A stretch of DNA of 64,000 nucleotides. It comes from Tubulanus polymorphus. Taxonomy: Eukaryota; Animalia; Nemertea. The translations under genes and the position numbers were made by a program. The notes below the pieces were generated by a model, which ran no database searches, was not told the DNA's origin, and was given only the letters and a program-made list of their open reading frames with translations. Shown here in pieces: positions 23,188-55,950 of the stretch (position 1 is the first letter of the stretch; each line of letters begins with the position of its first letter). The stretch lies in the NCBI RefSeq assembly GCF_964204645.1, contig NW_027437453.1, forward strand, positions 1-64,000, given 5' to 3'.

Positions 23188-24087
23188 CATTTGAGAACTA
23201 AAACTATGAGATGTACTTTAATTAGCTCTTCTATACGTGACTGGACATTGTGTAAAAGCTTTTGATTAAACTCAGAGGCCTATATGATATGCGTGATCTG
23301 AAAACAATTTATCGCTTTTAAGGGTGTATGCGACAAATAAGGAAAATACAGTTAATTTCCCTGTTTTCGGCTTAAATTTGAAGTAGATGAAAACCTGTTT
23401 TCTTTGAATTGAAGCCACGGGAACCACTTAACCTCATTTTCAAGCCGGCTTAGAATAGGCGATGTTGGGTTATTATGTCATTGATTTGCACAGAACGGAC
23501 ACCAGTATAATCAAATTCCCATCCTCGATGGCGAGCGTTTCCAAAAACCCAGCAACAGTGAGTTCCGGGAACTCATTTTGACATGGAATGTCGGAATCCC
23601 AGCCTTCGATAATTTCCCGTCTTCCTAATGGCCCAATAAGGTCAAATACCGTGATTTACGGAGTTAACGCGGCATTAAACATTTTAAACCTGCCAGGGAC
23701 TCGAATTTAAATCAAGTAGAAAATAAAGAAAAACTCCCAAAAAACTATTCTATCTTATACATTACTATTGTTAAGTCCACTACATATAAACAAGTTGAAA
23801 CCTCATTAATCAGTAGGTTGTACACTATACATCTTTTTAAATATATTATAACAATCGAAGTTTTAGGTTCCAAAACCTGGAACAAAGTTCCGTAATTATG
23901 AAAGTCACAATTATTATAGATAAGTTACTTTATCAAATTCTGATGCTTGATAGAGTGTAAAACATATTTGCAGAGTGTAAGCGCATTTATTTTCCAACCT
24001 CCAATAAAATCCACGAGAAATAGTATTATACACTACAATGACTTCACTGCATGCGCAACGAATCAATAGGCAATACAAACCGTTGTG

Positions 24088-24550
24088 AGTAATAGGGATA
24101 ATAGGCTTTCAAGCCAAAGGTCGAACGGTCGAGCTCGTAAAAAATGAAAAACATAAAAATAATAACAATTTCTACTTGAATTACTCGCGAAACTCATAAA
24201 AATGAAAAATAAATTCTCACACGCTCGAATTTATTTTTCATTTTCATGAGTTTCACTCCTAATTCAAGTAGAAATTGTTATTATTTTTATGTTTTTCATT
24301 TTTACTCACCCGCCCGTTCAACCTTTAGCTTGAAAGCCTATTATCCCTATTACTCTTAAAATATTCATATATATATGAATAACATTTAAATCATTGAACT
24401 TCTAAAATCAATTTTAATAAAAAATATAGTATTAAAATGGAAGCAAATAAGTACTACTGCCCAACATGTAAGATAAATATAGATAAGTCTCAAAAAGCAA
24501 GACACAATAAAACTATAACACATTTAGAGAATAAATTGAAACTAGAATAT
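24088..24550 (+). repeat. Left TIR; contains a 267-bp hairpin (24088-24354) and the first 38 codons of pPolB
   Basis: Near-identical reverse complement of 41765-42228. Confidence 0.95.
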
Positions 24551-27500: not shown

Positions 27501-28471
27501 TGAGACAAGGAATGATATTTAAAAAAGTACATAGATATATTTCATTTAATCAATCTAAATGGTTAGAAAAATATATAGATTTTAATACTACACAGAGAAC
27601 TAAATCTAAAACTGATTTTGAGAAGGATTTTTTTAAATTGATGAATAATGCATTTTATGGAAAAACATGTGAAAATATTAGAAATAGAAGTGATATTGAG
27701 TTAGTTAGTAATGGTAAAAGGATAAAGCATTTACAATCGTATCCGAAATTCATAAGCAACAGAATATTTGATGAAAATTTAGCTGCAGTTAAAATAAGGA
27801 GAACTTCTATGAAGTTCAATAAACCAATCTATGTTGGTGCTACAGTTTTAGAATTATCAAAGTTATTAATGTATAAATTTTACTATAACATATTACAACC
27901 CCATTTTGGAGAAAAAAATATAGAAATATTATATTTTGATACAGATTCTTACATATTAAAGATAAAAAGTGATAATATAAGAGATGATTTAAAAATATTA
28001 AAACATCATTTTGATTTTAGCAATTATCCTGAAGATCATGAACTATTTAGCAATGATAATAAAAAGATTCCTGGTAAGTTTAAGGATGAATTAGGTGGTG
28101 AAGAAATGATAGAGTTCATAGGTATTAGATCTAAAATGTATTCATATAAAACTAAAGAACATGAAGCTAAAAAGTTAAAAGGAATAACCAAAAGCGTTGT
28201 TGAAAAGAATATTCATTTTAAAGATTACATCAATTGTATATTTAATGAAGAAGTTAGAAAACATAAAATGAAATGTTTAAGATCTGAAGATCATGAAATG
28301 TATATTGAAGAGATAGAGAAGATAAGTCTAAACCAATTTGATGATAAAAGATATATTTTAGATGATGGAATCCACACAGTCGCCTATGGTTGCAATTTAG
28401 ATGAATATATAAAATTAAAAAGAGAAGAAACAAAAGAAAATGAGATTATGAAAAGGATTCTAACATGTTAA
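24437..28471 (+). CDS. pPolB: Protein-primed family B DNA polymerase with N-terminal C2H2 fingers and an inserted endonuclease VII-like His-Me finger
   Basis: YGDFES, FHNLSGYD, YLKSDV, YIDANNLYG, KLMNNAFYGK, YFDTDS; CYYC..RDHDH..RG..H..CN. Confidence 0.97.
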   Translation: MEANKYYCPTCKINIDKSQKARHNKTITHLENKLKLEYKDDILETKLEELKNEKETYKCDTCNQSFSDKRYYKEHLKSISHIRNKNNDILGEDYFDNDNDKKQKTIKRIKNKLNNKRPYMEDVRKYINSLDNKKDIEITEAFKSDIGPAAIEFKFHKGKTLEENKKHLENMKEIIKIITDVEYPKISISVKVKFIKSEDKPIYNINSHSQHIISKQHIDDKLNKCYNEIKTKIEEKYFEGSGLIFDEIIFITLHVYNTKYNKLTKSKPIDENNLSYYKDDSINGTSYIKLPFKTNGVINIQNFDNKCFIWAIISCLHPVEDYKQHSFRLTHYKQFENNYKIDKYPVRIKNIPKIERDNNLKINVFDLIKLPNTKGNNIKHYTLEPLYLSKDYDSNNVIDILYYENHYMWIKQIDLFFRTESDHHNKIYLCRKCLHKLSNESILLNHKQLCDNHDYCKLVLPNEKDKILEFKKYDYKNKVPFVIYGDFESLNKELTDKDRKEIYYKRKKLNSNENDFSDEPPKTNTIKKIHQSAAAFGLYIKSDYPELIESEYYNYRNENVINHFCDLLIEYEIRFSKLLNTNIEIIMTEEDKEEFAFADKCYYCEKLFNYKDKKVRDHDHLNGKFRGAAHENCNLQAKKINFVPVIFHNLSGYDAHLFIKQLCYKIEEINNEIEILNSNRSKDKIPTYKFKMLAKTSENYISFQFGCLRFIDSYRFLNSSLDNLSKSLIDDELKILKEYYPNYDDFKLMRYKGAIPYSFYKNHNDFEITELLKEQFYDELKNEYVKDEVYNRTLNIWNHFKIENHGQLVDLYLKSDVLLLTDIFERFRDVNLKYFNIDPCHCYSSPGLTWDCGLKFTDIKMDLLTNIDQLLLFEKSIRGGVSGVLGDRYFNVNDNPGYKLLYIDANNLYGWAMMEPQPYGMFEITEVLQIDKFDWKKRILDIADDSDTGYFFVVDLEYPENIKFKSRNLAYCPEHKTVKHEELSNYQKRIKPDNHIHTEKLMVTQEDKYNYVVHYRMLKFYLRQGMIFKKVHRYISFNQSKWLEKYIDFNTTQRTKSKTDFEKDFFKLMNNAFYGKTCENIRNRSDIELVSNGKRIKHLQSYPKFISNRIFDENLAAVKIRRTSMKFNKPIYVGATVLELSKLLMYKFYYNILQPHFGEKNIEILYFDTDSYILKIKSDNIRDDLKILKHHFDFSNYPEDHELFSNDNKKIPGKFKDELGGEEMIEFIGIRSKMYSYKTKEHEAKKLKGITKSVVEKNIHFKDYINCIFNEEVRKHKMKCLRSEDHEMYIEEIEKISLNQFDDKRYILDDGIHTVAYGCNLDEYIKLKREETKENEIMKRILTC

Positions 28472-28499
28472 TCAATTTCAATAAAAATTTGTATAATAA

Positions 28500-28841
28500 A
28501 TGGAGAGTAAACAAGTACATAGTGAATTCTTAGATAGAATTAAAGATACTTCAAACGTCAAATCTGTAGATTATAAATTTAAAAAACTAACTGAGTTAAC
28601 AATTCACATGAAATATTTAATTACTAACATTGAAACAATTACTAATAAATATGGAGATAAATTAGTAATTCATTTAGAATATGAAGGATTAAAAGGAAAT
28701 ACACATAAATTCAGAACTTATTTACCAGATAGATTTCATAGATTATCAAGTGAAGATCTAGAAGAATTATGTTCTGGGTATTTCTATTTCATATACAAAG
28801 GTAAGAATGAAAAAGGGCACCATGAAATAGATTTCGAATAA
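28500..28841 (+). CDS. Hypothetical Polinton protein (113 aa; possibly beta-rich/OB-like)
   Basis: Intact ORF with TAAATG start, tightly packed after pPolB. Confidence 0.75.
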   Translation: MESKQVHSEFLDRIKDTSNVKSVDYKFKKLTELTIHMKYLITNIETITNKYGDKLVIHLEYEGLKGNTHKFRTYLPDRFHRLSSEDLEELCSGYFYFIYKGKNEKGHHEIDFE

Positions 28842-28858
28842 GAAAATATGTAAAATAA

Positions 28859-29617
28859 ATGGCGGAATTAAAAGAATACAGAATATTTGTTGATTCTAGA
28901 AGGCTTACAAATTATAAATCTCATAATTTACTAGTACAATTAGATAGAGAATTCAAGAATTGTGTTGATTTAAAATTGATAAATATAAGTCTATGTAATT
29001 CTTTTTATAATATATCGAATAAAACTATTGAACATAGAGCCTTTTTAATTTTTAATAAGAATAAAAATGAATGGGCTTATATATATTTAAAACCGGGGTT
29101 ATATAATTTAGATACATTAGCACAAGAAATTAATAGAAAAGCCTGGCACAAGTCAGGTAATAATTCCGGGTTTAATATTAGATTTTTAAAAAGTGAGAGT
29201 ACTGACAAAATAAAGATAAGGTTGTCTGATAGTGAAAAACATGCGTTTATGGTAAAAAAACCTATAGCTAAACTGTTAAGAATTCCTCCAGATAAATCTT
29301 TTACAAATGTTGATGCTACACCAAACTTGATACCTTACACACACTTTTATATTTATTACAATTTAATCGATCCTACAAAAACATTCGAAGCAACTAAAGA
29401 TATAACTTGTAATTCTGGTTTACTAAACATTTTACCATTGAAGAATGTTAAAGAATTTGGAACACAAATAAATTATAATTTAACAGAATGTGATTTCAAA
29501 CCATGCATTCCTCGTTTTAATAATTTTAGATTAGAAATTAGAAATCATAATGGATACTTAATTGATTTAAATAATTTCCCTGTAATTTATGAATTAGTTA
29601 TAAGATGTAAAGAGTAA
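28859..29617 (+). CDS. Minor capsid protein (penton, single jelly roll)
   Basis: IFVDSR, NSFYNI, PGLYNLDTL and C-terminal IRNHNGYLIDLNN.PV.YEL, typical of Polinton/virophage pentons. Confidence 0.75.
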   Translation: MAELKEYRIFVDSRRLTNYKSHNLLVQLDREFKNCVDLKLINISLCNSFYNISNKTIEHRAFLIFNKNKNEWAYIYLKPGLYNLDTLAQEINRKAWHKSGNNSGFNIRFLKSESTDKIKIRLSDSEKHAFMVKKPIAKLLRIPPDKSFTNVDATPNLIPYTHFYIYYNLIDPTKTFEATKDITCNSGLLNILPLKNVKEFGTQINYNLTECDFKPCIPRFNNFRLEIRNHNGYLIDLNNFPVIYELVIRCKE

Positions 29618-29633
29618 TTTTTTCATTATATAA

Positions 29634-29975
29634 ATGAATATAACTGTTGGACCGAGTATATGTTTTGGGTTTGATTTTAAACATGGTAAAGAAATGAGAA
29701 TTAAACTAAATGATGTAATTACTGATATAAAAAGTAAATCATTTAACAATGCATCAATGATTGATAAAGAAAAGTATAATATAGAAAAAGTAATTGATTT
29801 AATTAAATCACCTTTAGAATATTATGAATTAAATGAAGATGGAATTATTGATGATATTAAAAACATATTATCCAAAATATATGATAATCATAAAACTAGT
29901 AATGAAATAAATGTTGAAATAATCATCACTAAGTTAACTAAATATTTTGAAGATAGTAATTTTTTTGATAAATAA
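29634..29975 (+). CDS. Hypothetical Polinton protein (113 aa)
   Basis: Intact ORF preceded by T6-N7-TAAATG. Confidence 0.7.
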   Translation: MNITVGPSICFGFDFKHGKEMRIKLNDVITDIKSKSFNNASMIDKEKYNIEKVIDLIKSPLEYYELNEDGIIDDIKNILSKIYDNHKTSNEINVEIIITKLTKYFEDSNFFDK

Positions 29976-30197
29976 ATGAGTGATAATAAGTGGATAATAA
30001 CTGGATTATATAATGGCGCATTACTATCAGTTGGAACTGTTGGTTATTCAATGGTATTAAAAAAAGTATTCAAAATGGGAAGTGTTAATGTTGATAGATT
30101 TGATATAAATGATATTTTGAAATTAACGTTAGCAGTTACTTTATCTAATTTAACTATTGATTATTTGGAAAAACAAAAATATATTCCTCCCATATAA
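29976..30197 (+). CDS. Small hydrophobic/membrane protein (73 aa)
   Basis: Two hydrophobic segments; TAAATG start. Confidence 0.75.
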   Translation: MSDNKWIITGLYNGALLSVGTVGYSMVLKKVFKMGSVNVDRFDINDILKLTLAVTLSNLTIDYLEKQKYIPPI

Positions 30198-30221
30198 ATG
30201 TATAATTTTTTTACTAAATAA

Positions 30222-30644
30222 ATGGCTTCTGCAATTATAACTATTATAGGATCGGCAATTGTTAACGCTTTAGCATTTACTGGTGGTGGTTATTTATTTA
30301 AACATATTGATAAAAATAGTTCATTAGGAGAACAAAGAAGACATAATTTAGCGTTAGAGAAATACAATAAAGCTGCAGAAGAATATAGAGAAAAGAGACA
30401 AAACTATATGGATTACATCAATAAAGAATTATATGATCAGAAGATTTCAAACAGAGATTTTCAATCAGTTGATGATGCAATGAGTTTATATAACACAGTA
30501 ACAAATAAAGAAAAATTACATCTATACAAACCTAAATTATCAGATTATTATACCCCAAGTAAAGAACAACAGAAATATGAAATAATATGGATTTTAGGTG
30601 GAACAGTTATTGTTATATTTGTTGCTTATAAGTTTACTAATTAG
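30222..30644 (+). CDS. Membrane protein (140 aa) with a hydrophobic Gly/Ala-rich N-terminus, coiled coil and C-terminal TM
   Basis: MASAIITIIGSAIVNALAFTGGG; IIWILGGTVIVIFVAY. Confidence 0.8.
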   Translation: MASAIITIIGSAIVNALAFTGGGYLFKHIDKNSSLGEQRRHNLALEKYNKAAEEYREKRQNYMDYINKELYDQKISNRDFQSVDDAMSLYNTVTNKEKLHLYKPKLSDYYTPSKEQQKYEIIWILGGTVIVIFVAYKFTN

Positions 30645-30663
30645 TAATTTTTATTCTAAATAA

Positions 30664-31098
30664 ATGGAAGATAAAGTTGATAATATTGATATTATTCCTC
30701 ATGATATAAATAAAACTAAATTAAAAACATATTTAGAAAAACAAATATTAGAATTTGAAAGTGACTTAAAGATAAAAAAGAAAAAATATTTAAAAAGTAA
30801 AATTATATATTATTTGATTATAAGTGGTTCGGTTACAATTAGTTCTGTAATAACATTTCTAGCAATATTCAGCCCATTAACACCTTTAGCTATATCAATT
30901 GGTGTATTAGGATTAAGTTCAAGTGTTTTAACTGGTATAAGTTCAAAATTAAATATAAAAAGTAATAAAGAAAAAATTAAAACTAATATAAATGAAATTA
31001 ATAAATTAAAGAACACACTAGATTATATAATAAGTTTAAATGGTCATATAACAGTTGAAGAACAAGATAAATTATTAAAAGAATTAATAAATTATTAA
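30664..31098 (+). CDS. Two-TM membrane protein (144 aa) with flanking coiled coils
   Basis: IIYYLIISGSVTISSVITFLAIF and LAISIGVLGLSSSVLTGI. Confidence 0.8.
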   Translation: MEDKVDNIDIIPHDINKTKLKTYLEKQILEFESDLKIKKKKYLKSKIIYYLIISGSVTISSVITFLAIFSPLTPLAISIGVLGLSSSVLTGISSKLNIKSNKEKIKTNINEINKLKNTLDYIISLNGHITVEEQDKLLKELINY

Positions 31099-31114
31099 TT
31101 TTTTAATTATATAA

Positions 31115-32416
31115 ATGGGGTTTCCAAAAGCTTTCCAATATAATAAATCAATTAAATATAATATTCCGGCAATAGATTTTAAGAAAAATATTACATATAA
31201 AAATGTAGTTTTAGATTCATTAACTAATTTAGAAATTTATGTTAATGAATCACAGTTTTTTATTTCTAAAATGGAAAATATATTTAATACATATGAAGTT
31301 ACTTTTACTCGAGATGAATATCATATATATAAAGTAAAATCTAATATGAAATATTGGCAGAATCAATTAAATTTTGCTGTTTATTGTGCAACAACAGGAT
31401 GTGGAATTAGTTGGAATGATCATTTAAATAACTTAGATAAAAATTTGAAGTATTCTGATTTAAAATTAATTCACACAATATTTAGATTTCACACATATTT
31501 TCAAATCAGAATAATATTAAATGAATTAGAATGTCCTTTACCCGGGTCTAAATATTTTAAAGAATTGGATAATAATATTAATATATCCAAGTTTTATAAA
31601 ATATGTAATGAATTTAATATAAATATTAATTCCGATTTTAGAGCGCATGGTAAATTGCAAGGTGTTGGTGAAGAGTATGAAATAAAAAGAATTGATTATA
31701 TGCATAGAATTTCAGCTTATCATAATTATAAAATTGATAATAATAATGGTTGGGTTAATTTCATTTTAGAAAATGGTGAAGGTTTTACAAAATCAGGTAT
31801 ATAAAGAATAAATCAATCTATTAGAATTTATTTGATATGTATTTTAGGCGCTCAAGTTGAAACAAGATCCCCAATAATTGGAAATGATAACACTTCATTC
31901 GATGCGCAGAAACAATTTAAAGTTTTATTTGAAGATTCAATTCATAATGATAAAAATAGATCGATTCCAGAAAACATTATAAGATATCAAAATTATTTAG
32001 ATAAATCTCATGTAAGACTAAATTATTGTATAGGCCCTAATCTATTAATTATTTCTAATGATTTAGTATTAAAGATGGGAAATATAATTGGTTATAATAA
32101 TCTAATTAAAACTGCAACAATAAATAATTCATTTGGATTAAATGATATAAATAAAAAGATTATTACTGCTCCAAAATTAATGGAAGGTGAAAAAAATAAA
32201 AAACATATTCAATCAACTGAAACTAAAACTAATAATATTAAATTGGTTAATGATTCCAAAATAAAAGATTACAATACATCAGAAAATAATAGAACTGATA
32301 AAATTCAACATGATATAATTAAACTAAATGATGATAATAAATCCCATGAAAATACTAAATTAGCTATAACTTGTATAGGAATTGTAATCGGAGGAATATT
32401 ATATTTTAAATTTTAA
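31115..32416 (+). pseudogene. Polinton protein with C-terminal TM, broken by one in-frame stop (31802-31804)
   Basis: ORFs 31115..31804 and 31832..32416 share a frame (GFTKSGI*RINQSIR); YWQNQLNFAVYCATTGCGIS motif; terminal LAITCIGIVIGGILYF. Confidence 0.8.
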
Positions 32417-32432
32417 TTTTTTTATTATGTAA

Positions 32433-34139
32433 ATGGATGTAGAAGGTGGAGAAGATTATGAAATGGGAGAAATGGGAAATAATAAGGAAGGATATATTGA
32501 TGATGATTATAATGATACAGAAACTAATATTGATAATAATGATGAATCAGCATATAATACTAATTTAGGTGAAGATAATGATTATGATGATGATGATGGA
32601 ATTAATACCGAAGTACGTGAAAAATTAAATAAATATTTAGAAGCTCCTGAAAGGGGTAGAATTTCAACTAGAAGAGAAAGAAAAGAATTTATGGAACAAT
32701 TAGTAAAACAACAAGAAAAATATCCTGATGAACATTTGGAATTATTTAAAATGAAATCTAGAGTAACAGATACAATTGTTAACGAATTATTACCATCAGT
32801 TGTAATAGATGAAATTGATACTGAAGATGTTGTAGAACAAATTTTTAAAGATGACCCATATTTCACAAATAATTTAGAATTTAAAAATGATGCATGGTAT
32901 TATAATCTTGATTTAAATAGGAATATTGTAACAATTCAATTATCTAAAATAGGTCAAGAAAATATTTTTGAACCTGAAATGCGAGCAACATCTACAATTG
33001 AAAATTCAAAAGGTGGTAGAGAATTTCTCAAAATTATATGGAATGCACTCGATAGAATAAATGAAGAAGAACCAATTCCTAAAATTAATATAAACAAATA
33101 TTCACCATTTAAAAATCCAAATCCTACTGATTTTGATCCAGAAATGGAAGAGAATAGAAATCGATTAGATAGATTAAGATCTTCAACACCCGAAACATCG
33201 AGAAGAGACACTCAACAAATTGATAATGATTCAAGTAAATTACAATTAGAAAAACAAATTGATAGATTAAGAGATTCAGAAGAACTGATGAATAGTATAT
33301 CAGATACATCTGGTTCTGAAACTGGAATAAATCGACTGCAATATTTACTAGAAAAAGGATTTCTTAATTTAACTGATGAAGAATTAGAAGCATTTCCTGA
33401 ACAAATACGTAGAGAAATTAAAGGTATACAAGTATCAGCTGATGAAATTGCTAATATTAAGATGAGATTTTCTAAAATAACCATGTTAGAAAAAGAATTA
33501 GTTAATGTAGATGAAGAATTAAAACAATTAGAATTAAATAGAAATCATCAAGTAGTTTATGAAGCTGATTTTGAAAGCAGAAAGTTAGCTTTAGTAAAAG
33601 AAATAGATGATTTAGAATATAACATAAAATTACAAAAAGAAGAAAGAGATATATTATTAAAATCATATGATCTTAATCATATTAAAAAATTAAAAGTTAT
33701 TTTTAAAGATTTGTTGATTAAACCAGATTCTGAAATATCATTAAAAGATAGAATAAAATTATTATTTAAATTAGAAGGAATAACAATTCTTTCAATTCTA
33801 ACATCTGTAACTATGGTATTTACAACAATAGGTTTAGCTATATCAAATGCTTTGAAATCTACTCCTACTCCCACTCCAAATAAACCGGATAAACCTCCAG
33901 GCAATAATTCTATACAAGATAAAGTTAAAGATGGTTTAAAGAAATTAGCAAAATATTTATGGGAACTATCTAAAAAATCTGCTGCAGCTTTACCAGGAGT
34001 TATTGCTTCAATTGTTGGTTTTATATTGAAATCTGCAGGTAATATTCTTAACTTTGCTGCTGAACATATTATTTTATTTTTAATTACAGTTGTTAGTGCT
34101 ATTATTTTTGGTTTAGTAAACATGATTAAAAATAAATAA
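32433..34139 (+). CDS. 568-aa protein with acidic N-terminus, long coiled coil and C-terminal membrane helices
   Basis: Heptad-rich region, TM segment, PTPTPNKPDKPP linker, amphipathic helix, terminal TM. Confidence 0.85.
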   Translation: MDVEGGEDYEMGEMGNNKEGYIDDDYNDTETNIDNNDESAYNTNLGEDNDYDDDDGINTEVREKLNKYLEAPERGRISTRRERKEFMEQLVKQQEKYPDEHLELFKMKSRVTDTIVNELLPSVVIDEIDTEDVVEQIFKDDPYFTNNLEFKNDAWYYNLDLNRNIVTIQLSKIGQENIFEPEMRATSTIENSKGGREFLKIIWNALDRINEEEPIPKININKYSPFKNPNPTDFDPEMEENRNRLDRLRSSTPETSRRDTQQIDNDSSKLQLEKQIDRLRDSEELMNSISDTSGSETGINRLQYLLEKGFLNLTDEELEAFPEQIRREIKGIQVSADEIANIKMRFSKITMLEKELVNVDEELKQLELNRNHQVVYEADFESRKLALVKEIDDLEYNIKLQKEERDILLKSYDLNHIKKLKVIFKDLLIKPDSEISLKDRIKLLFKLEGITILSILTSVTMVFTTIGLAISNALKSTPTPTPNKPDKPPGNNSIQDKVKDGLKKLAKYLWELSKKSAAALPGVIASIVGFILKSAGNILNFAAEHIILFLITVVSAIIFGLVNMIKNK

Positions 34140-34159
34140 TTAATTTTTTTGTTAAATAA

Positions 34160-35407
34160 ATGAGTGGGAGTTATATCAATCCTTCTAAGAATCATAGAAT
34201 ATCTAATGCTATTAAAGCAGAAAGATCACATCATATAATTACTCATAACCCTTCAAATATTAATCCCGATGAAACTTTATATGTTAGAATTCCTAGATTA
34301 ACACAAAATACTTTTTATGTTCCAAACAGTATTTATTTATCAGCTGATATAAAAGTAATCGGTAATAATAATAATTATGTCGTTGATAATGTTGGAAGAT
34401 ATTTGATTAAAAAGTTAACAATAAAGATTGGTCCAGAAACAGTTTTCTCATTAGATGATTATAATTTATTTATGCACTATTAAGATTTATGGTTAACTAA
34501 AGAAAATAGAAATAATATGATATTTCAAGGCATCCAATCAGAAAACCAAAATAAATTAAGATCAGAAGCTAATAGCGCAATATTAACAAATGATGTAGAT
34601 AAATTGATAAAAAGTATATATGGAAACAAATATAAAATTCCATTAGACTTTGAATTGATAAATAATAATGCACCTTTATATAAATACGCAATTCAAGAAG
34701 ATATTATATTTGAGATAACATTTGCTCCCGTAAATGAAATTGTAATATCTAGCGTTAATAAAGATATGAGTTATAAATTATCGAATATATGTTTAGAATA
34801 TGATACAGTAACTGATGAAAATATTTCAAGTATAATTCAAACTAAATACAATCAAGGATTTTCATTATTATATGATTATATTGATAAATTTAAAACCGTA
34901 ACTATTAATGCAAATGATGAAATAATTAATGAGAATATTAACTTCCCAAGAAGATCTATTAACGGTATATTAATATTTTTTACTATTGGAACGTATACTA
35001 ATGGCGCAATAAATGTTGACAATTATTATAATCCTGAAATAACAAAAGTAGAAATAACTATCGAAGGAATAGCAAATAAAATATTTTGTCAAGGAATGAG
35101 AATGATAGATCAATGGGTAGAAATTAAAAAACATTTTATGAATGAAAAAGTAAAATCATTTGAAAATTGTAACATTAATCAAATTGATTATTATACCGGT
35201 AATAAATATGCATTATGGTTAGATTTTAGAACAACTGAAGATAATTCATTACATGGTTCTGGGAAAAAACTACAAAATACAAAAGATGGAATACAATTAT
35301 TCATGACAAAGAAAAAGGGAATTAAAAATTTTAAAATGCACATTTATATTATATCTGACGCGCAATTAAATATTGTAAATTCACAATTAGATAGTGTTAT
35401 GTATTAG
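34160..35407 (+). pseudogene. Major capsid protein (double jelly roll) with a premature stop at 34481-34483
   Basis: ORFs 34160..34483 and 34517..35407 are in frame (HY*DLWLTK); beta-rich pattern, IKKLTIKIG, ALWLDF; ~415 aa. Confidence 0.8.
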
Positions 35408-35439
35408 AATTTTAACTTTAATAAAAATATATATAATAA

Positions 35440-36507
35440 ATGGAAGGAGGTAAAGTATATGAAAGAATCAAAGCTGATAAAGAAATCAATGATGATTTGT
35501 ATTATGTAATACCTTATAAAAGAATAAATGAATATATTGGAACATTTTTATTAAATGAATTAAATCAATACAAAGAATATTTAATTGAACGTAATAATAA
35601 TATTGATATAAAAATAGAAGATAATATTGAAACAAAAATAGAAGATAATATTGAAACAAAAATAGATAATAATATTGAAACAAAAATAGAAGATAATGTT
35701 ATACCTTCTACATCGAATGATGATAAGATTGAAACAAAAATAGAACATAATATTGAACCTAAAATAGAAAAATCAAATGTTCAACCAAAAGATAACATTA
35801 GATGTATGTATTGTGAAGAAGATTTTGATAATTACAATGATTATTTATTACACATCAAAAAAGATGAACATATTTTACAATTAGTAAAAACATATGCCAA
35901 TATATATAAAGATAAATGTAAAGAGGATCAGAATTATTGTGCCTTCTGTAATGAATGTATAACAAAGGCTAATTGGGCAAAACATTATAAATTAAAAACA
36001 AAAGGTGGAAATGATTCAGCCCATGCAATACAAGTATTTAAATCTTGGTGTGAAAAATGTAAAGAATATGTAATATATGATAAACAATTGAATCATAAAT
36101 ACTCAATTAAACATATTGGTACAGATAACGTAATAGAAAATCCAACAGTTATAAATCCAAAATTTAATAATATGAATATATTAGATTATCGGTGGTATAG
36201 AAAAACATTTATAGATTATTTCTTGAGTAATGATATAGTTACCATATTGAAAAAGTTAGATAACTTTAAACCAAATGTAACTTATGCAATGAACTTATTT
36301 GAACTTAAATATGATGATTTTAGAGAATTTTTAAATAAAAATCCATCTAAAACTGAAATCGAAAATTATATTCCAAAAATATTTTCAAGAAAAACATTCA
36401 ATAAATATAAACTTGGGAATTATTCAGGACCTATATCAAAGATAATGCAAAGGGATATATATTTAGAATACAATAAGCTTAAAGAAAAATATGAAAATGA
36501 AAATTAA
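35440..36507 (+). CDS. Zinc-finger protein (355 aa) with an internal (IEDNIETK)n repeat
   Basis: CMYC..H..H, CAFC..H, CEKC..H..H. Confidence 0.8.
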   Translation: MEGGKVYERIKADKEINDDLYYVIPYKRINEYIGTFLLNELNQYKEYLIERNNNIDIKIEDNIETKIEDNIETKIDNNIETKIEDNVIPSTSNDDKIETKIEHNIEPKIEKSNVQPKDNIRCMYCEEDFDNYNDYLLHIKKDEHILQLVKTYANIYKDKCKEDQNYCAFCNECITKANWAKHYKLKTKGGNDSAHAIQVFKSWCEKCKEYVIYDKQLNHKYSIKHIGTDNVIENPTVINPKFNNMNILDYRWYRKTFIDYFLSNDIVTILKKLDNFKPNVTYAMNLFELKYDDFREFLNKNPSKTEIENYIPKIFSRKTFNKYKLGNYSGPISKIMQRDIYLEYNKLKEKYENEN

Positions 36508-36511
36508 AAAG

Positions 36512-36889
36512 ATTATAGAATTCACTGTATATTGATGGATGAATGGATGAGTTGGAAGAGTTGGATGAATTGGATGAGTGGAAGAGTGGATGAGTATAAT
36601 AATATATATATTTTACTTTTTAACACATAAATTGGAAGAATAGTATGAGTATAAATATAATATTTTTATTCTTTATTAAATTTAACACAATATATATATA
36701 TTATTAAAATAATATTTAAATATAGTATAAAATTGATAAAATAACTTCAAATCAAACTCTTACTGTTTTAAAAATAAAAAACATATGTAAATTATATATT
36801 ATTACACTCATCCATTCATCCACTCTTCCAATTCATCCAATTCATCCAATTCATCCACTCATCCATCAATATACAGTGAATTCTATAAT
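36512..36889. repeat. Inverted repeat (~90-bp arms built of GGATGA(A/G)T microrepeats) between convergent gene blocks
   Basis: ATTATAGAATTCACTGTATATTGATGGATGA...TCATCCATCAATATACAGTGAATTCTATAAT. Confidence 0.9.
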
Positions 36890-36905
36890 ATTTTGAATTA
36901 GGATT

Positions 36906-37517
36906 TTATTTTATAAATTTATATTCATAGGGAAATTGTAATCTCATTAATAATTTTGAACCTTTATTATTTTTTAATTTATTCATATATTCATCATGTA
37001 ATTCAGTAGGTATAATTTGATTTTCTTCCAATGATTGTTGCATAGATTTTCTATCTTTGTTGTAGAATAAAACTAGAAATCTTATATTCTCTCTAAAATC
37101 TTTCACAATTGAATTATATTTTTGATTTAAAACCCATGTTGTTATCCCAAAATGTCTACCAGAGAAAGCTAAATAACATAACTCACTTTCTCTAATTTTA
37201 GAATCATGTAAATTTGCGCAATCATCGATAATAAATAATGTATTTGATCCTTTATAAATATCTAATGCAATTTTTATACAATTATCTAAATTTTCTTTTA
37301 CTGTTTTAGGGTCTAATATAATAAACTTTTTTATCTTAACTATATCTCTATTATATGTTTTATTCATTTCATATGTAGGACAGAATAATATTATATTATC
37401 AAAATGATTTTTATAAATAGTTTCTAACAAGTCTAATATGAAATGTGTTTTACCACAATTTGTAACTCCAATAACTAACATATTATGTGGTTCAAATATA
37501 AATAAATCTTTATTCAT
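36906..37517 (-). CDS. A32-like (FtsK/HerA) DNA packaging ATPase
   Basis: Walker A GVTNCGKT, Walker B FIIDD, GRH motif, Q sensor. Confidence 0.92.
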   Translation of the reverse strand: MNKDLFIFEPHNMLVIGVTNCGKTHFILDLLETIYKNHFDNIILFCPTYEMNKTYNRDIVKIKKFIILDPKTVKENLDNCIKIALDIYKGSNTLFIIDDCANLHDSKIRESELCYLAFSGRHFGITTWVLNQKYNSIVKDFRENIRFLVLFYNKDRKSMQQSLEENQIIPTELHDEYMNKLKNNKGSKLLMRLQFPYEYKFIK

Positions 37518-38599
37518 TTATTCTTTTAATTTTACTAGATAAAATCCATTCATTAAATTTATCATCATATCCTTTATATTTCACCAAAGAATACTTTTTT
37601 CCTTTAAGAGTTTTTGTTTTCAATACTTTTTCTATTTTGTATTCTATTTCATCTGGATTTGGTACTAATGATAATTCTTGTTCATAAAAATAACCTAATA
37701 TTTCTTCATCTTTTAAATCAAACAATTTATAAACAAATGGTTTAGTTAATATTATCTTTTTAATTTTAAATATTTCTTCAGTAAAATTAGGGGTATAACC
37801 TTTATAAAATGTTTTTCGATATTTAGAAATTCTAACATGTTGTCCTATTTTTAATTTAGGTTCTCCAAAATCGTGTGTAACAAATGCGCCATAAAAATTA
37901 TTCCAAACTATTTCTGAATTTTCTTCTTTTCTAGCTTGTATAGGTTTTAATATTTATAGAACTATGTTTAGAATTATTATAACCTTTAACTAAATCATCT
38001 AACACATCGATATATTTATATGTTTCATTAGCGGTGAAATATTTCCACATTCTAGTTTTCAATGTTTTATTAAATCTTTCTATAACAAATGCTTTTTTAT
38101 CTGAATGTGTTGAAAAATATTCTACATCGTTATCAGTTAATAGTTTTTTAAAATGTTTGTTATAAAATTCCTTACCTTCATCAAATTGTATCTTATCTGG
38201 AATAGCTTCTTTAAATATTAATTTGAAAGAATTTGTAACTTCTATACCAGTTTTATTTTTAATCGGGATACTCCATGCGTATCTACTGAATATGTCTATA
38301 ACATTTAGTATCCAAAAATATCCTTTGTTATATTTTTCTAAGTTTTTCATATCAATTAAATCAGCTTGCCATTGTTGGTCAATATATGAAACCATTACTT
38401 TTCTTGTTAAATATTTTTTATCCATCTTTTTATGAATTTGATATGTGGGTTGATTTTGTAACCATGATTTTAATTCACTATATTTTATTTTTTCTTTATC
38501 AGATTTAATTTTATCCCATAATTCCGAAACACTTGAATATGATACTTCACTTTCTGGGTTATAATATAAATCTCTTAAATATTGTTCTTTTTTCATCAT
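37510..38599 (-). pseudogene. RVE (retroviral-type) integrase with C-terminal chromodomain; one frameshift near 37945-37955
   Basis: WQADLIDM, FDEGKEF, IERFNKTLK; the alternative frame continues KPIQA...VRISKY..F.KGYTPNFTEEIF into the chromodomain (LVKYKGYDDKFNEWI). Confidence 0.92.
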
Positions 38600-38602
38600 A
38601 TT

Positions 38603-38998
38603 TTAATCCATTAATAATATTTTAGATTTATTTTCATTTGATTTATGATTTGACTTATTTTCTGGTATAATAGGTTTATCATCATTGGAATCATCTTTAT
38701 CATCAGATTTGAATTTTGATTTATATATTACACCGGATAATATAATAATTGTGATTAACCCAATTGTAATATATAAGTAATTATTTCTTCCACTATTAGA
38801 AGAATTAGATGGATTATTATTTGAATCAATACCACCGTGTGGGTGCTGTACGGCACCATCAGATAATTTCTGTGATTCATTTATATCAGTTAATTTCTTT
38901 TTCTTAGCTTTTTTTAATTCTGATGATCTTTTACCTAATTCTCTTGCCCATTTAATTTGTTTCTCGGATCTAGCCTTTTTCTTAACTCCATCACTCAT
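38603..38998 (-). CDS. 131-aa protein with a basic N-terminus and one TM
   Basis: KKKARSEKQIKWARELGKRS; YLYITIGLITIIILSGVIY. Confidence 0.75.
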   Translation of the reverse strand: MSDGVKKKARSEKQIKWARELGKRSSELKKAKKKKLTDINESQKLSDGAVQHPHGGIDSNNNPSNSSNSGRNNYLYITIGLITIIILSGVIYKSKFKSDDKDDSNDDKPIIPENKSNHKSNENKSKILLMD

Positions 38999-39593
38999 TT
39001 ATTTTAGTTAATTTTTGTTCTGATTCATTTTCTGTTTCGATGTTTTGTTGTAGTACATCTGTTTCGTTCTTACCTGATTTATATTCCATATTCTTGATGT
39101 TCGAAAATGTTATGACGCCAGTAGAAATTAATGTCATAACCGATCCTAATTGGAATGAAGCATAACCGACCCATTTTTGTAATTCAGTCATAACTAAGTA
39201 GTCATTTTTCAAATCATTATATAATTTATTTTCATCATCAATTGGTATTAACTGGTTACATAACTTAGAATAACATTTGACAATACCATCTGAAATAGAA
39301 TCATTTATTCTAGCTAATCTTGACTCTTCATAAATCTTAAAATATTTTATTACTTTTTCTTTGTTCATATTATCTAATTCTTGAAAAGTTATTGTTTTAC
39401 CAATAAACTCTTTAGTTTTTCCACTCGCAATCAATAGTTCTAGATGATGTTTACAATATAAGTAGTATTCATAATCTATATTGTTATTAACTTGAATAGA
39501 ATTAGTTACAACTGTATCTTTATTATCACTTATACCCAAATCATCTAATGTTTTTTCAATATCAATACTATTCTTATTAGATTTCTTTGACAT
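38991..39593 (-). CDS. Hypothetical Polinton protein (200 aa) with a hydrophobic C-terminal segment
   Basis: Intact ORF preceded by T6-N9-TAAATG. Confidence 0.75.
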   Translation of the reverse strand: MSKKSNKNSIDIEKTLDDLGISDNKDTVVTNSIQVNNNIDYEYYLYCKHHLELLIASGKTKEFIGKTITFQELDNMNKEKVIKYFKIYEESRLARINDSISDGIVKCYSKLCNQLIPIDDENKLYNDLKNDYLVMTELQKWVGYASFQLGSVMTLISTGVITFSNIKNMEYKSGKNETDVLQQNIETENESEQKLTKINE

Positions 39594-39896
39594 TTATATT
39601 AGAGGAAAAAAGCAAAAAAAAATATTTTAAGTATTCTTCAAATGATACTAGATAGTTAAAGTTAAAGAACTCTAGTATTGACTACTGATACTAGCTATTT
39701 GAATTTAAAGAATTTCTATTTGAATCTATTCAAAATATAAAGTATTCTTTTTTGAAAAGAAAATATTAAAAATATAATAGAATTCACAAGCTAGTTGAAG
39801 TTATTGTTTTTTAAATATTTTTTATTTAAAATCTATTTGATATCTCACTACTTTTGTTTATCTATTAGGAGCAGTAGTTATAACTGTCCAGATAAG

Positions 39897-40571
39897 TCAT
39901 TTCGGATCCTTGATATCAAATTCCTCAACGTATTGTTCATTCTGTGGGTTACTATTCCACCAATCAATAAATTTCCTTGCTTTATTCAACTGTTCCAAAT
40001 ATAATTGTAAATCTAGTTTATTAGATTTGATTTGATTTTCTTTCTTTTCTAAAGGCCTTAGATTCTTCCAATTCCAAATAAGTTTTTTATTGTATTCATC
40101 ATTCATGTTAAATTTAGATATTGGTAACACGTGATCAATATGGTAATAATCCCCATAATTATCTATATTCATTTTATCATCGAATTGATATATTATCCAT
40201 GATTTGAGAAATTCATCTGAACAACCCAATAAATTAGATAGTGTTTCTGAATGTGTTTCTTTGTTGAATAATTGTGTTAATCTAGACCTTAAGCATTGTT
40301 TCAATCTAAAATTAAGATCTGTTTGATATCTTTCTCTCATATATTCTGTCATATAATCATTATAATGTTCTCTATTATCTTCTCGATATTGTTTGGTGTA
40401 TAGTTTAGTACAAGTTTTACAACAATATTGAAAACCATCTTTGCTAATCTTACGCTTACTAAATTCTGTTAATGATTTATCTAATTCACATTTAGAACAC
40501 TTCTTGTAGTATATGTTTATAACACCAGTGTTATTTGTAATATTGATAATTTGTGGTTCTTCTGGTTCCAT
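39897..40571 (-). CDS. HNH endonuclease with an N-terminal Cys4 zinc finger (type common in large DNA viruses)
   Basis: CSKC...CKTC; YHIDHVLP...NLRPL...EN. Confidence 0.85.
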   Translation of the reverse strand: MEPEEPQIINITNNTGVINIYYKKCSKCELDKSLTEFSKRKISKDGFQYCCKTCTKLYTKQYREDNREHYNDYMTEYMRERYQTDLNFRLKQCLRSRLTQLFNKETHSETLSNLLGCSDEFLKSWIIYQFDDKMNIDNYGDYYHIDHVLPISKFNMNDEYNKKLIWNWKNLRPLEKKENQIKSNKLDLQLYLEQLNKARKFIDWWNSNPQNEQYVEEFDIKDPK

Positions 40572-41686
40572 TTATTATACATATTTTTTCACTAAATTGG
40601 TTAATATTTTAGAATCCTCTTCCATTTCTTCGACCAACGTCATCCTTTTTCATTCTTCGTTGCTTTTGATAAGTTGTTTCGATTCCTTGATATCTAAATA
40701 ATACCACTGGGCAAAACCGCTCTTATAGGAGCGCTTTTGCTTAATGCGCATGCGTTAATCATAATTATATATTCATTCTGTAAATTCTGTAAAATAGAAA
40801 CGACCGACATAAAATATCAAAACGTGTTCGCATTAAGCAAACCGCGCATTCATGCGCGCTTTTGCTTAATGCGCATGCGCTAATCATAATTGAAACGAAT
40901 TATTATTGAAACGACTGAACATAAAAATTCACCAAACAGATTTACACAATACATTATACAATTTGTTCAGTCGTTTCTTCCAATACATCATTTGATTTCT
41001 ATAAATACAATTTATAATTACAAACATTTTTTCAATTGCTGGTAAATATTTAACTACATCAACAAATGTTAAACTTAATCATTGGAGTCTTAATGTTTTT
41101 GAAATTCTTATATAGTTTCTTCGACGATCTTTTGGCGATTCTTGTGTTTCTTGTGCTAATTTCTATTGGTTCGATATCCATTGCTGTTGATTCCTCAGTC
41201 AGAAAGAGTATCTTGAGTTTCTCTATCACTTCTTGATGCGTATGGCGTTTTATTAATCTAAAAGATATTAGCGGTAACTCTAGCTATCTAAAAGATATAC
41301 TAAATACACTTAAATATATCTAAAGGTTTCATATTTAATAGTCTTAATAACTACAACAAACAGTACTTACATTTAGATTTATAATTGTAAACTATAAACT
41401 CCTAATTTCGTTTCGAAAGATAGAATATCCTGAGCACAATATTACAACGTATATCCATTTCCGGGGCGATTTCTAGAATGAACACGTCGTTGATTATGCC
41501 ACGTCATCTAGTTCGGGTTTAGAGTGTTCTACACGTTTCTGATTATGACGCGTCATAATGTCTCGTCGTTATAGTAACAACTGTAACAGCTGTGAATTTA
41601 TAGATTTATTCTATAGCTCTGTATATTGAATGTATATAGGCTAAAATAGAATCATTTTCTAGTATAAACATCATATCCTCAATGTA

Positions 41687-41878
41687 TTATTCATTATTTG
41701 GATCAGTGTTCCATAATTCAATAAATTTCTTTCCTTTTGTTAACTGTTCTGAATATAACTGTAAATATTCTAGTTTCAATTTATTCTCTAAATGTGTTAT
41801 AGTTTTATTGTGTCTTGCTTTTTGAGACTTATCTATATTTATCTTACATGTTGGGCAGTAGTACTTATTTGCTTCCAT
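41687..41878 (-). pseudogene. Chimeric ORF: pPolB N-terminal zinc finger (from the TIR) fused to the tail of an HNH paralog
   Basis: First 38 aa identical to pPolB; LQLYSEQLTKGKKFIELWNTDPNNE resembles LQLYLEQLNKARKFIDWWNSNPQNE. Confidence 0.75.
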
Positions 41879-42228
41879 TTTAATACTATATTTTTTATTA
41901 AAATTGATTTTAGAAGTTCAATGATTTAAATGTTATTCATATATATATGAATATTTTAAGAGTAATAGGGATAATAGGCTTTCAAGCTAAAGGTTGAACG
42001 GGCGGGTGAGTAAAAATGAAAAACATAAAAATAATAACAATTTCTACTTGAATTAGGAGTGAAACTCATGAAAATGAAAAATAAATTCGAGCGTGTGAGA
42101 ATTTATTTTTCATTTTTATGAGTTTCGCGAGTAATTCAAGTAGAAATTGTTATTATTTTTATGTTTTTCATTTTTTAACGAGCTCGACCGTTCGACCTTT
42201 GGCTTGAAAGCCTATTATCCCTATTAGT
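41765..42228 (-). repeat. Right TIR; contains the terminal hairpin 41961-42228
   Basis: Reverse complement of the left TIR; ends ...CTATTAGT (one mismatch to the expected ...CTATTACT). Confidence 0.95.
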
Positions 42229-45200
42229 GTTGTGTATTTTGTTAGTAGCTGGGTGTGTGCAAAACAAAGCATTCAGGGTCCAAGTTCAAATTCTGTCAAA
42301 GAAATGATTTTATTTCTTTAGTTTGGTTTGCTTCTTTATTAACGAAATTAATTGAATATCCGTTTGGTTGAATGACAGGACTTCATTTCATCTGATCTCT
42401 ATTCTTGTGTAGGCCTATAGGCAATAACGAGCGTCAGGAAATAAACAGTCAATCTTTACTACAATGCTGCATCAGTGCTTTGACTTATATTATAAATCTC
42501 CAGCAATAATTTATCATATGTATATGGAGATGATGATGCCCGCACAAATACCCGTGCCTAAATCCGTATTATCGGGGTACTAAATGGTCTGATCGCTTTT
42601 GTTTTATATGGCGAATTAATCGAATTCAATCGAAAAACATACCCCAAGCAATATTGTTTCTGAAGTATACTTCAGAAACAATATTCTTTATTATTCTCAA
42701 TTATCATTTGATCACTGTCACCTAAAGTTGATAAACAAGGTTATGAAATTGTAATTCTGATCGTAGTATTTAATTCGACGTAAGGATTGCATACTGCAGA
42801 GATTGGGAAACAGTGGAAACATGCAATATTTTAGAAACCCGTGGATAATATTTTTTACAACGGTGTTGAGGAATATATATATGTAAAATCATTGAATTTA
42901 GGTTAAATAGACATTATTCATTTTCACGTGACCTTTATTAGCCAATTGTCTTATTCTATGGGCTGAGGTTCGAATCTAATCAACAACTCGTACTCCTAGA
43001 ATCAAAATATCCTCAAGTTATCATTCCTTAAAATGATTCGTGTGCTTCGCTAGCGTTCGCAGTACACTTTGAAGGGATTACTGTCGATCATCTAGTGCTC
43101 AGTAGAAATAGTAACATCGATAAATGTTTTTCTTAATCAAGATGAGAATCATCGATTAACATGTTATGAAATTCAATTTGGAAGGGCTAGATTTTTATGT
43201 GGCGGATTATTACCCGTTACCCGGATAGACTCACGCTTATAAATCAACAACCGTATTAATGCGTTAACTTACTTGATAAATACATATTCAAATAATATCA
43301 GATTGCATAGACCTGCAATGGGCTCGATAACTAAATTATGTCTATTAATGTATATCGTGTATTATTAATCTATAAATACAATCTTCGAAATTGAAGGTAC
43401 AGTATTTGCCTAAAGATGTTCATTGCACATTTTAGATATCATCGTTTTTGATAGTGTGGTTTTTTCTATTTTCTCGAAAGACATGAAACAAAATGTAGAG
43501 ATGTATTCGGATTTTTGTAGGTCCATTTTAATTGCAAAGCAGAGTACTGGATATTGGATCCCGTTGACTATTGACCTCCTCAGTTGTTTTTGTTATAGCG
43601 AGCCCATGGTGCAACTATGGCGATATCCTCTTGTTTGTGTATAAGGTAAAAGGCTTCAAATAGAAATGGCACAATTTATTTTGGGATGGATTAGAACTAA
43701 GTATTCTTGAGAGCACTTGAGAGCGGCTGAACGAGCAACCCTATTAGTTTATACAGTGAGACCATCACCTAAACTGTCTCCTATGCGATCTTTCTGTAGG
43801 TTCATTGGCATAGATTTATCAAATACTGGTTGGACCACATGAAAAAATAATTTCTTTACTAGAATTTAGGGTGTAGGAGTCAGCACTCACACCCTATTTT
43901 TCATAGACTAGTTTTCATTACCGATACCTTTAATCTGTGTCGCATTAGACTGATCGATTTCACTATTATCTTAACCGTAGCGTGCCTATATAGTCTATGT
44001 GTTAATATTAACTTTCGGACTATTAATTCATTGAAAACGAGAGCAGAAAAAACACAGTCAATATGGCTCAGTTATTTCAGAATTTCAAAGTAGGCCTATA
44101 TATAATTATATAATGCCGACACTAAAAGCCCCAGATCGTTGCTTGCTGGTGCAGGTTGAATGGAATTATTTACTGAACTGGAATTTCCTAACTGGATGTT
44201 TTATATAAACTGAAATTTCAGTGAATCTGCGATAATCCATACATAGAATATTCGTTACCCCGAATTTTGACTTCAAAATCCGAGCCCGTAATTCAGTCCC
44301 GGCAGGAGTGGTGGGTTAGTAGGGACACACCAAATAAATAAGAGATAAGCTCTGAATAATGTTGAAGGTATTAAAATGATAACAAGATGACGACAGCGAT
44401 TCCGATCTCAAAAGCCTATTTCAGGACTTTGAAACCCGTGAGGTTTGTTCCTATACCATATGCGTTGCCCGATTATGAGACAGATATCAGAAGATATTAA
44501 ATGAGGACTTATGAATCAGGCATTAAAATCCATTTTTTTCAAATACTATAAAGTTAATTCTTCAACTGGAGGTAACTCAACTGTTCAAAGACTGTTCTGA
44601 CAAAAATTGTTCTGCTGGTACAAGTACATTTATTCATGTTCACGGTCAACGTCAATAGAACAAATAGCTCACTAATATCACTGCATCGTGTCAATGTGAA
44701 ATGTTTCACATATTATTTGATATATTTTCATGATATAGAATATCCATTCTATTTGTTTTGTTGTATGAAACCGGAACGTTCAATCATAAGTCCAATCTAA
44801 TTGGCTCATACTCATAACAATGATAATCATATCTAATTTAACTCATTGTGATCGAAACTCACTGAACATAGGCCTATTATTTAGATAAAACGAAACTTGC
44901 TTAAACTAGTGGATTAACATAGTGGATTTTCCATCTGAGTTCTATAAGGGTTTCTATTTTCAAGAAAATGAACAATTGAATCAAACGACCAATTGTAATT
45001 ACTATACGAAAATTAAAATATCATTTGGTTTAATCTGATCACACCATTCTCGCATCAGAATTACCACGAGCACCGGCTAAAACTATTAATCTAAATGTGA
45101 TATTTCTTAGTGATGACACAACTATTTCGAATCAGTTGCAATGCCGCCTACTACTGGCCTGATAATTCACATTATTTTGTAAATAACTTTCACATGGTTC

Positions 45201-55835: not shown

Positions 55836-55950
55836 TCACAAGTATATTCCGATTGATTTTCGCATGTATATTCCGATTGATTTTCGCATGTATTTTCCGA
55901 CTGATTTTCGCATGTATATTCCGTTGTTTGATTCGACAAACTTTCGCATG
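55836..55950. repeat. 24-bp tandem repeat within BEL gag (TCENQSEY)n
   Basis: GATTTTCGCATGTATATTCCGATT-like units. Confidence 0.8.

Follow-up and report, generated by a model that had tools for sequence, protein, structure and literature searches.

The question of whether Polintons in animals live as autonomous viruses, as transposons or as satellites has yet to be settled, and it is raised again by an element in the nemertean Tubulanus polymorphus. This Polinton comprises 18,141 bp (24088-42228) of the stretch analysed here, i.e. the first 64,000 nucleotides of contig NW_027437453.1 (referred to as the window), and has a GC content of 24% within surrounding DNA of about 36%. In a preliminary description its gene starts had been likened to poxvirus promoters, and the element had been taken as a candidate satellite of a pox-like virus. 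Is this start signal real, how closely does it resemble that of poxviruses, and which RNA polymerase might read it? The signal is a real, conserved and surprising cis-signal, as the following comparisons indicate.

The start signal of the Polinton genes

TAAATG had been reported at 14 of 16 gene starts, the exceptions being the protein-primed DNA polymerase B (pPolB) with TAAAATG and the integrase with TAAAATATG; all of this was confirmed in the sequence. Within the element, the T-type signal T6-N7-TAAATG is found six times with exact spacing, its T-runs beginning at 29618, 29960, 30206, 31099, 32417 and 34144, each time at the ATG claimed, and the signal of the gene starting at 29976 is indeed embedded in the upstream coding sequence (29960..29978). 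The variants described at 30664 (T5-N8) and 39593 (T6-N9) are both present. The pattern of the second proposed class (A-type) has exactly four matches, at 28500, 28859, 35440 and 40571, all of them gene starts.

The proposed enrichment check against a null was carried out with Markov models of order 2-4 (200 runs each), which gave 0.02-0.04 expected matches of T6-N7-TAAATG and 1 match at maximum, compared to the 6 observed. No match was found on the other strand of the element or in 45,860 nt of flanking DNA. The hexamer TAAATG by itself shows no more than a mild enrichment (42 copies on coding strands vs 20-30 expected). The signal lies in the position of TAAATG at the starts, not in the abundance of the hexamer.

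A homology of the regions upstream of 28500 and 40571 had been noted as well. The homology itself stands, with a 60-nt alignment exceeding 1000 of 1000 shuffles. Because the stretch at 28500 overlaps the last codons of pPolB, the shared 60 nt may be a duplicated junction and need not represent a longer promoter.

Conservation among related elements

Through capsid alignment, 25 metagenomic loci (L001-L025) were gathered. Fifteen of them bear the motif; they were picked after the motif had been seen and are mutually related, so that counts derived from them are not independent. In the window and these 15 loci, TAA precedes the ATG directly at 63 of 76 starts backed by N-terminal homology, compared to 45 of 1176 internal ATGs, and T is found at ATG-12 in 66 of the 76 starts. 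The remaining 10 loci are distant relatives and exhibit the motif at 1 of 30 starts. A quick capsid tree covering 16 of the 25 loci places the motif-bearing rows together in a single clade, but support is not strong, with a value of 83 in the Shimodaira-Hasegawa-like approximate likelihood ratio test (SH-aLRT). Outside this clade lie L015, L019 and L020, whose capsid gene lacks the motif; L018 carries a TAAAATG-like variant with a T-run.

The comparison across homologues suggested with the preliminary description showed that the motif is kept in relatives, including L005 and L006 with a GC content of 40-44%, and under altered gene order. It is also kept in six head-to-head gene pairs, in which a common spacer of 19-30 nt carries TAAATG on both strands.

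Scans with capsid and ATPase yielded no relatives in viral and prokaryote genome collections. Capsid homologues labelled as Bartonella hypothetical proteins (P0009 and P0127-P0134) are located on short contigs, which are probably host-derived DNA in those assemblies.

Comparison with viral start signals

For comparison, a poxvirus set of 37 loci around a polymerase motif was used, 36 of which have the poxvirus layout (a similar locus, L345, was confirmed by Pfam); it covers a single 20-kb core region and apparently includes no poxviruses other than chordopoxviruses. Further sets comprised 14 iridovirus-like loci as well as 80 loci found by scanning more broadly for polymerases, while entomopoxvirus, fish poxvirus and asfarvirus genomes lay outside the comparison. 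TAA-ATG was found at 67 of 81 starts in the Polinton clade (83%), at 275 of 652 in the sampled poxvirus core region (42%; the set includes the chance phage match L297, with 1 of its 29 starts, which was dropped from the later profile comparisons), at 30 of 96 iridovirus-like starts and at 118 of 1157 control starts. The controls, from which L041 and L030 were excluded, stem from two promoter-pattern scans and are mostly phages and unrelated viruses among the matches listed, their TAAATG frequency being inflated by this selection.

The unweighted T profile of TAAATG starts correlated with that of the Polinton clade at r 0.66 for poxviruses, 0.09 for iridovirus-like loci and 0.02 for controls. 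With weighting by orthologue and restriction to majority-TAAATG groups, the median r was 0.52 for poxviruses, 0.15 for iridovirus-like loci and 0.21 for other polymerase-bearing loci, this filter and the best of three shifts having been chosen after an earlier weighted result was known. Poxviruses were higher in 97.5% of bootstraps compared to iridovirus-like loci and in 92.7% compared to the other polymerase-bearing loci. The latter are 57 polymerase-motif loci, many of them phage-looking; they replaced a set of other nucleocytoplasmic large DNA viruses that had partly been picked with the very promoter pattern under study. G follows the ATG at a frequency of 0.66 in the Polinton clade, compared to 0.57 in poxviruses and 0.28 in both the iridovirus-like and the other polymerase-bearing loci.

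In vaccinia, late promoters consist of TAAAT(G) preceded at a distance of 10 nt by a conserved T that stands within a group of Ts; intermediate promoters have TAAA and an AT-rich block followed by T (PMC11980589). The clade exhibits the late promoter trait, i.e. TAAAT(G) at the start and a T about 10 nt upstream. It shares with vaccinia the position of TAAAT(G) over the start codon, the T- or A-rich core about 10 nt upstream and the G after the ATG (PMC11980589, PMC5294985). In the Polintons, however, the core is about 1 nt closer (T peak at ATG-12 vs -13 in the poxvirus loci) and A at -4 and -6 is stronger. The iridovirus-like starts (L303-L316, L317) mostly read TAATAAATG, lacking a T-tract at -14 to -12; this motif was not met in the review text examined (PMC5294985).

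The Polinton shares a promoter motif with large DNA viruses, and among the sets tested poxviruses are the best match, of moderate strength and not exact. At the sequence level, this moderately favours a pox identity of the signal. Of the earlier claim, the greater closeness to poxvirus post-replicative promoters than to other viral sets has held; pox specificity is less certain, TAAATG being frequent in iridovirus-like and other large viruses, too. A role as vaccinia concatemer resolution sequence (PMC8956199), to which the T-type pattern had also been likened, was rejected: neither strand of the left terminal repeat contains T5/T6-N7-9-YAAAW, and the resemblance is only one to the late promoter.

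One core or two classes

Alignment of the starts at the ATG revealed one core free of G and C at -18 to -12, which ranges from A6T to AT6 and ends in T at ATG-12. It is followed by a spacer tolerating G and C, A-W-A-TAAATG and then usually G. The two classes are the ends of this single A/T core; in the head-to-head pairs, a tract that is T-type for one gene serves its partner, read from the complementary strand, as A-type. Compared by orthologue, the class is stable for 7 genes and switches for 6. The A-type is stable for the 355-aa gene (4/4), the penton (2/2) and the ATPase (5/6 TAAATG starts), the T-type for the 73-, 144-, 200- and 442-aa genes; 10 of 14 capsid starts are T-type, too. A split into DNA-handling and packaging genes with the A-type and membrane genes with the T-type echoes the intermediate/late division of vaccinia (PMC5294985), but the classes are not discrete. 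The timing of expression may be intermediate-like with A-type cores and late-like with T-type cores; this is a weak step and the weakest part of our reading.

Possible signals at transcript ends

Word counts on coding strands were compared with synonymous-codon shuffles. TTTTTNT, the poxvirus early terminator (PMC3061580), was found 11 times in the 15 relatives, with 45 expected; the ratio of observed to expected was 0.79 for AT-rich poxvirus core genes, 0.99 for iridovirus-like loci and 0.97 for AT-rich controls. Separated by the last bases, the asymmetric form T5-V-T was more strongly depleted (10 vs 35 expected) than T5-V-V (48 vs 69; p 0.004, or 0.015 without near-duplicates). T6 is depleted as well on the coding strands of the clade (6 vs 33.5 expected), and a small sample of host transposons gave 0 vs 5. 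In African swine fever virus (ASFV), late initiators are TATA and genes end at runs of 6-7 T (PMC7458399). The avoidance of TTTTTNT and T6 supports a viral polymerase that would stop at U-runs, without fixing the virus it belongs to.

AATAAA is not avoided on the coding strands of the relatives (167 vs 176 expected, 0.95), and iridovirus-like loci also gave 1.0; in motif-free relatives the count was 7 vs 15 in a small sample. This is weak evidence against nuclear processing.

Which polymerase reads the signal?

In agreement with the preliminary description, no RNA polymerase of the element's own was found by Pfam scans or with poxvirus core-region profiles; Pfam gave none among 18 window frames, several of which remain without a family match, nor in L001-L025. 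A match to Rap94 in L016 was rejected as noise (E 0.019, under the cut-off). Since the start signals are shaped like poxvirus promoters and no own polymerase was found, dependence on the RNA polymerase of a pox-like helper is plausible. We lean, with modest confidence, towards an integrated, provirophage-like Polinton clade whose genes would be read by the RNA polymerase that a poxvirus-type helper brings into the cytoplasm. This proposal follows the mavirus model, because mavirus-like integrated elements carry the late motif of their helper (PMC8547959). Furthermore, Polinton-like viruses occur in entomopoxvirus occlusion bodies (PMC11296320). The polymerase would be cytoplasmic and supplied by the co-infecting virus, whose post-replicative factors would bind the core at ATG-18 to -12. 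Transcription would begin within TAAA and give almost no templated leader, probably with a slipped poly(A) leader instead, and T-runs may also end transcripts. The element would be copied by pPolB, packaged with its own capsid, penton and ATPase, and re-integrated by the rve integrase.

Several observations weigh against this proposal. No helper virus was found, and none of 23 poxvirus core-region profiles, which span only some polymerase subunits, matched any of 1308 six-frame pieces. The fit to poxviruses is moderate and best at a one-base shift, and on a matrix built from the Polinton starts all poxvirus loci score below 0. When all TAAATG-bearing groups were weighted by orthologue, the median T-profile correlation was 0.3 for poxviruses, 0.1 for iridovirus-like loci and 0.5 for the partly pattern-selected set. 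TAAATG starts are common elsewhere (30 of 96 iridovirus-like starts, 11 of 19 in L317, 7 of 16 in L365). The deficit specific to TTTTTNT is modest, absent from the window alone (p 0.54), and the word lies near only 17 of 78 gene ends; an early-type terminator is also oddly paired with late-type promoters. Of the two temporal promoter classes proposed earlier, the stability of A-type and T-type in some genes has held, but the cores are continuous, 6 genes switch, and penton and packaging ATPase fall in class A. Finally, the family is multi-copy in the host and must therefore have spread in the germ line by some route.

That the motif acts in translation or processing, e.g. by stop-start coupling, re-initiation, as a trans-splice acceptor or as an overlapping poly(A) signal, is highly improbable. 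AATAAA does overlap the start in 33 of 67 cases, and three window genes have a T-run directly after the upstream stop. However, of 72 starts only 2 have a TAA that ends the preceding gene, and the motif also occurs where no same-strand gene lies upstream; given these figures and the head-to-head pairs, stop-start coupling and re-initiation were excluded as the main cause. A trans-splice acceptor was excluded because no AG precedes the starts (G at most 3% at -7 to -4). The best inference is that the start signal represents promoter and initiator.

The satellite mechanism would be the same if the helper were another large DNA virus, related to iridoviruses, asfarviruses or others, with TAAAT or TATA as late initiator. 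This is rather unlikely, in spite of the TAAATG starts of iridovirus-like loci, L317 and L365, of the A at -4 that the iridovirus-like loci have in common with the clade (0.87 vs 0.89; 0.49 in poxviruses), and of the TATA initiators and T-run terminators of ASFV, which recall the depletion of T6; the iridovirus-like TAATAAATG starts lack the T-tract, and the comparison contained no asfarvirus locus. We regard it as quite improbable that the polymerase is provided in trans by a sister element or a cytoplasmic linear plasmid of the same host, with no infecting helper: yeast linear elements encode a poxvirus-related polymerase and have a TAAAN initiator and 5' poly(A) leaders (PMC6211774), but neither the window nor L001-L025 yielded a subunit of a poxvirus-type polymerase. 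Under a further alternative, the element would be an autonomous nuclear virus or transposon served by host RNA polymerase II (Pol II), with the motif as a compact AT-rich core promoter resembling that of poxviruses by convergence. The element is integrated and multi-copy, no helper was seen, and A/T tracts can bind TBP. Pol II, however, starts about 25-30 nt downstream of a TATA-like word, i.e. inside the gene if this word abuts the ATG, and a TATA box in this position was rejected. In addition, the head-to-head pairs leave just 19-30 nt for two promoters, and AATAAA, avoided in the small sample of motif-free relatives, is not avoided in the clade. This explanation is improbable. We retain the pox-type helper as our preferred reading.

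Structure and gene content of the element

The element has the Polinton/Maverick traits of terminal inverted repeats, here with a 413-nt perfect core, and of a 6-bp target duplication (Table 1). In host DNA runs the empty site was seen as well as many other flanks of the element family, indicating that the family is multi-copy in the host and the present insertion not fixed. Packaging ATPase, double jelly-roll capsid, penton and rve integrase are present as Polinton/Maverick genes. Three genes are broken in this copy, which the preliminary description had not mentioned: those of the major capsid protein and the integrase and the one starting at 31115.

Table 1. Features of the T. polymorphus Polinton (positions in the window)
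Feature	Position	Strand	Remarks
Left target-site duplication, 6 bp	24082..24087	+	Empty-site joint 24081 to 42229 with 6-nt overlap; DNA runs X1 and X6
Left terminal inverted repeat	24088..24550	+	413-nt core 100% complementary to right arm; contains pPolB start
pPolB, protein-primed DNA polymerase B, 1344 aa	24437..28471	+	Endonuclease VII/HNH domain PF02945, E 4e-5; A-rich core + TAAAATG
113-aa gene	28500..28841	+	No family match; A-type signal 28483..28502; T-type signal in L003 orthologue
Penton (minor capsid protein, predicted single jelly roll)	28859..29617	+	A-type signal 28843..28861
113-aa gene	29634..29975	+	T-type signal T6-N7-TAAATG at 29618..29636
73-aa hydrophobic protein gene	29976..30197	+	T-type signal 29960..29978 within upstream coding sequence
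140-aa gene, hydrophobic ends	30222..30644	+	T-type signal 30206..30224
144-aa gene, hydrophobic middle	30664..31098	+	T-type variant T5-N8 at 30648..30666
Gene, 442 aa in L003	31115..32416	+	T-type signal 31099..31117; interrupted by stop at 31802-31804
568-aa gene, hydrophobic C-terminus	32433..34139	+	T-type signal 32417..32435
Major capsid protein gene (predicted double jelly roll)	34160..35407	+	T-type signal 34144..34162; interrupted by stop at 34481-34483
355-aa Cys/His-rich gene	35440..36507	+	A-type signal 35423..35442
Imperfect inverted repeat, 115-nt arms, 89%	36494..36907	.	Separates two convergent gene blocks; TTTTTNT on both strands
A32-type packaging ATPase	36906..37517	-	PF04665, E 5e-12; A-type-like TAAATG start
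rve integrase	37521..38599 (lower end approximate)	-	PF00665; frame broken near 37931; starts at TAAAATATG
131-aa gene	38603..38998	-	TAAATG start
200-aa gene	38991..39593 (with signal 38991..39611)	-	T-type variant T6-N9
224-aa HNH-type gene	39897..40571 (with signal 39897..40589)	-	A-type signal
Right terminal inverted repeat	41765..42228	-	Complementary to left arm over the 413-nt core
Right target-site duplication, 6 bp	42229..42234	+	Sequence and host DNA runs

The assignment of pPolB to family B polymerases is based on motifs judged by eye in the translation of the 1344-aa frame; PF03175 did not match, nor did any Pfam or PDB polymerase. Pfam gave no OTU domain at its N-terminus, where no fold or profile-profile search was made. 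The penton model (pLDDT 91) matches the mavirus penton with E 2e-11, the structural comparison giving Z 11.9 and an rmsd of 7.2 over 239 aligned residues. The capsid model of the relative P0001 matches iridovirus and PBCV-1 capsid proteins (E about 1e-15). The integrase orthologue of L001 has 362 aa with a chromo domain, and the L001 orthologue of the HNH gene matches PF01844 weakly (E 0.006, under the cut-off); a homologue search with the HNH gene yielded 10 relatives and no link to any helper. For the 568-aa protein, a search of a protein atlas gave no usable match. No maturation protease (adenain) was detected by Pfam among the 18 window frames, although a divergent one could escape. Two relatives carry a deoxynucleoside kinase (PF01712; L003:10343-10981 and L006:2898-3377, both on the minus strand), a gene type common in large DNA viruses, whose source might give a hint at the helper.

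At both ends of the element, the outer 267 nt of the terminal repeat (24088-24354 and the right end) fold into an imperfect hairpin (z -25), at the inner edge of which the terminal sequence recurs inverted. As a speculation, the endonuclease VII domain of pPolB may act on this hairpin. The inverted repeat at 36494-36907 also contains short GGATGA-type repeats and might be a terminator or an origin. The copy of the pPolB start within the right terminal repeat (41687-41878, minus strand) continues into a tail that shares 64% identity over 25 aa with the C-terminal end of the 224-aa HNH gene and is suggestive of a decayed duplicate. Ahead of this repeat, a gene-free stretch (40714-40891) exhibits two 53-nt GC-richer direct repeats. 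A 24-nt tandem coding repeat lies inside the 355-aa gene (35593-35795). Reads from other copies cover it poorly, as they do the start of the 568-aa gene, so both vary within the family. In the flanks there are a Pao-type retrotransposon (52043-57271) and an 895-aa zinc-finger, transposase-like frame (10386-13073), both on the minus strand; such flanks indicate a eukaryotic and probably an animal genome, Pao elements being biased towards animals.

Relation to known systems and implications

With Polintons/Mavericks (Polintoviricetes) and adintoviruses the element has in common terminal inverted repeats, the 6-bp duplication, pPolB, rve integrase, ATPase and double and single jelly-roll capsids (PMC8502044). 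The lack of a pfam03175 match to pPolB is described there for the adintovirus Beta type, too. Unlike adintoviruses, the element has long terminal hairpins, and no maturation protease was found in it; the word 'promoter' is absent from the accessible main text of PMC8502044. The entomopoxvirus-associated Polinton-like viruses (Barth et al. 2024, PMC11296320) are likewise small Polinton-type viruses proposed as poxvirus parasites. They differ in their size of about 12 kb, in the presence of a protease and in the rve integrase, which was not detected or is replaced by a tyrosine recombinase. Their link to poxviruses is co-purification, whereas here it consists of cis-signals shared by integrated elements of one clade; the accessible main text of that paper revealed no analysis of promoters.

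Mavirus and endogenous mavirus-like elements with CroV resemble the element as rve-integrated proviruses without an own RNA polymerase and with a helper-type late motif at the starts (PMC8547959). They differ in the protist host, the mimivirus-type helper, the TCTA motif, the virophage capsid and in that dependence was demonstrated by experiment. The yeast cytoplasmic virus-like elements (pGKL) are linear, too, with a TAAAN initiator and a poxvirus-related polymerase; this polymerase is their own and their upstream conserved sequence is related to early poxvirus promoters, whereas the Polinton has capsid and integrase genes, and no RNA polymerase was found in it (PMC6211774).

In the accessible open literature (including PMC10748475, PMC11788076 and bioRxiv 10.1101/2025.10.09.676808), supplements and subscription papers aside, no description of poxvirus-type promoters in animal Polintons was found. 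Polinton-like viruses linked to entomopoxviruses are already in print (PMC11296320).

A conserved helper-type promoter provides a sequence rule for sorting Polintons by their likely helper. Tentatively, and with less confidence than for the mechanism itself, a whole clade of integrating animal Polintons might be regarded as provirophages of poxvirus-like viruses, with intermediate-like and late-like promoters and terminator avoidance. Such elements would stay unexpressed in the germ line and become active upon infection by a helper, would mark the hosts of undiscovered pox-like viruses and could possibly serve as an inherited antiviral defence, as mavirus does in protists. If this is true, pox-like viruses would be predicted in hosts without known ones, and the triangle of host, giant virus and provirophage would extend from protists to animals.

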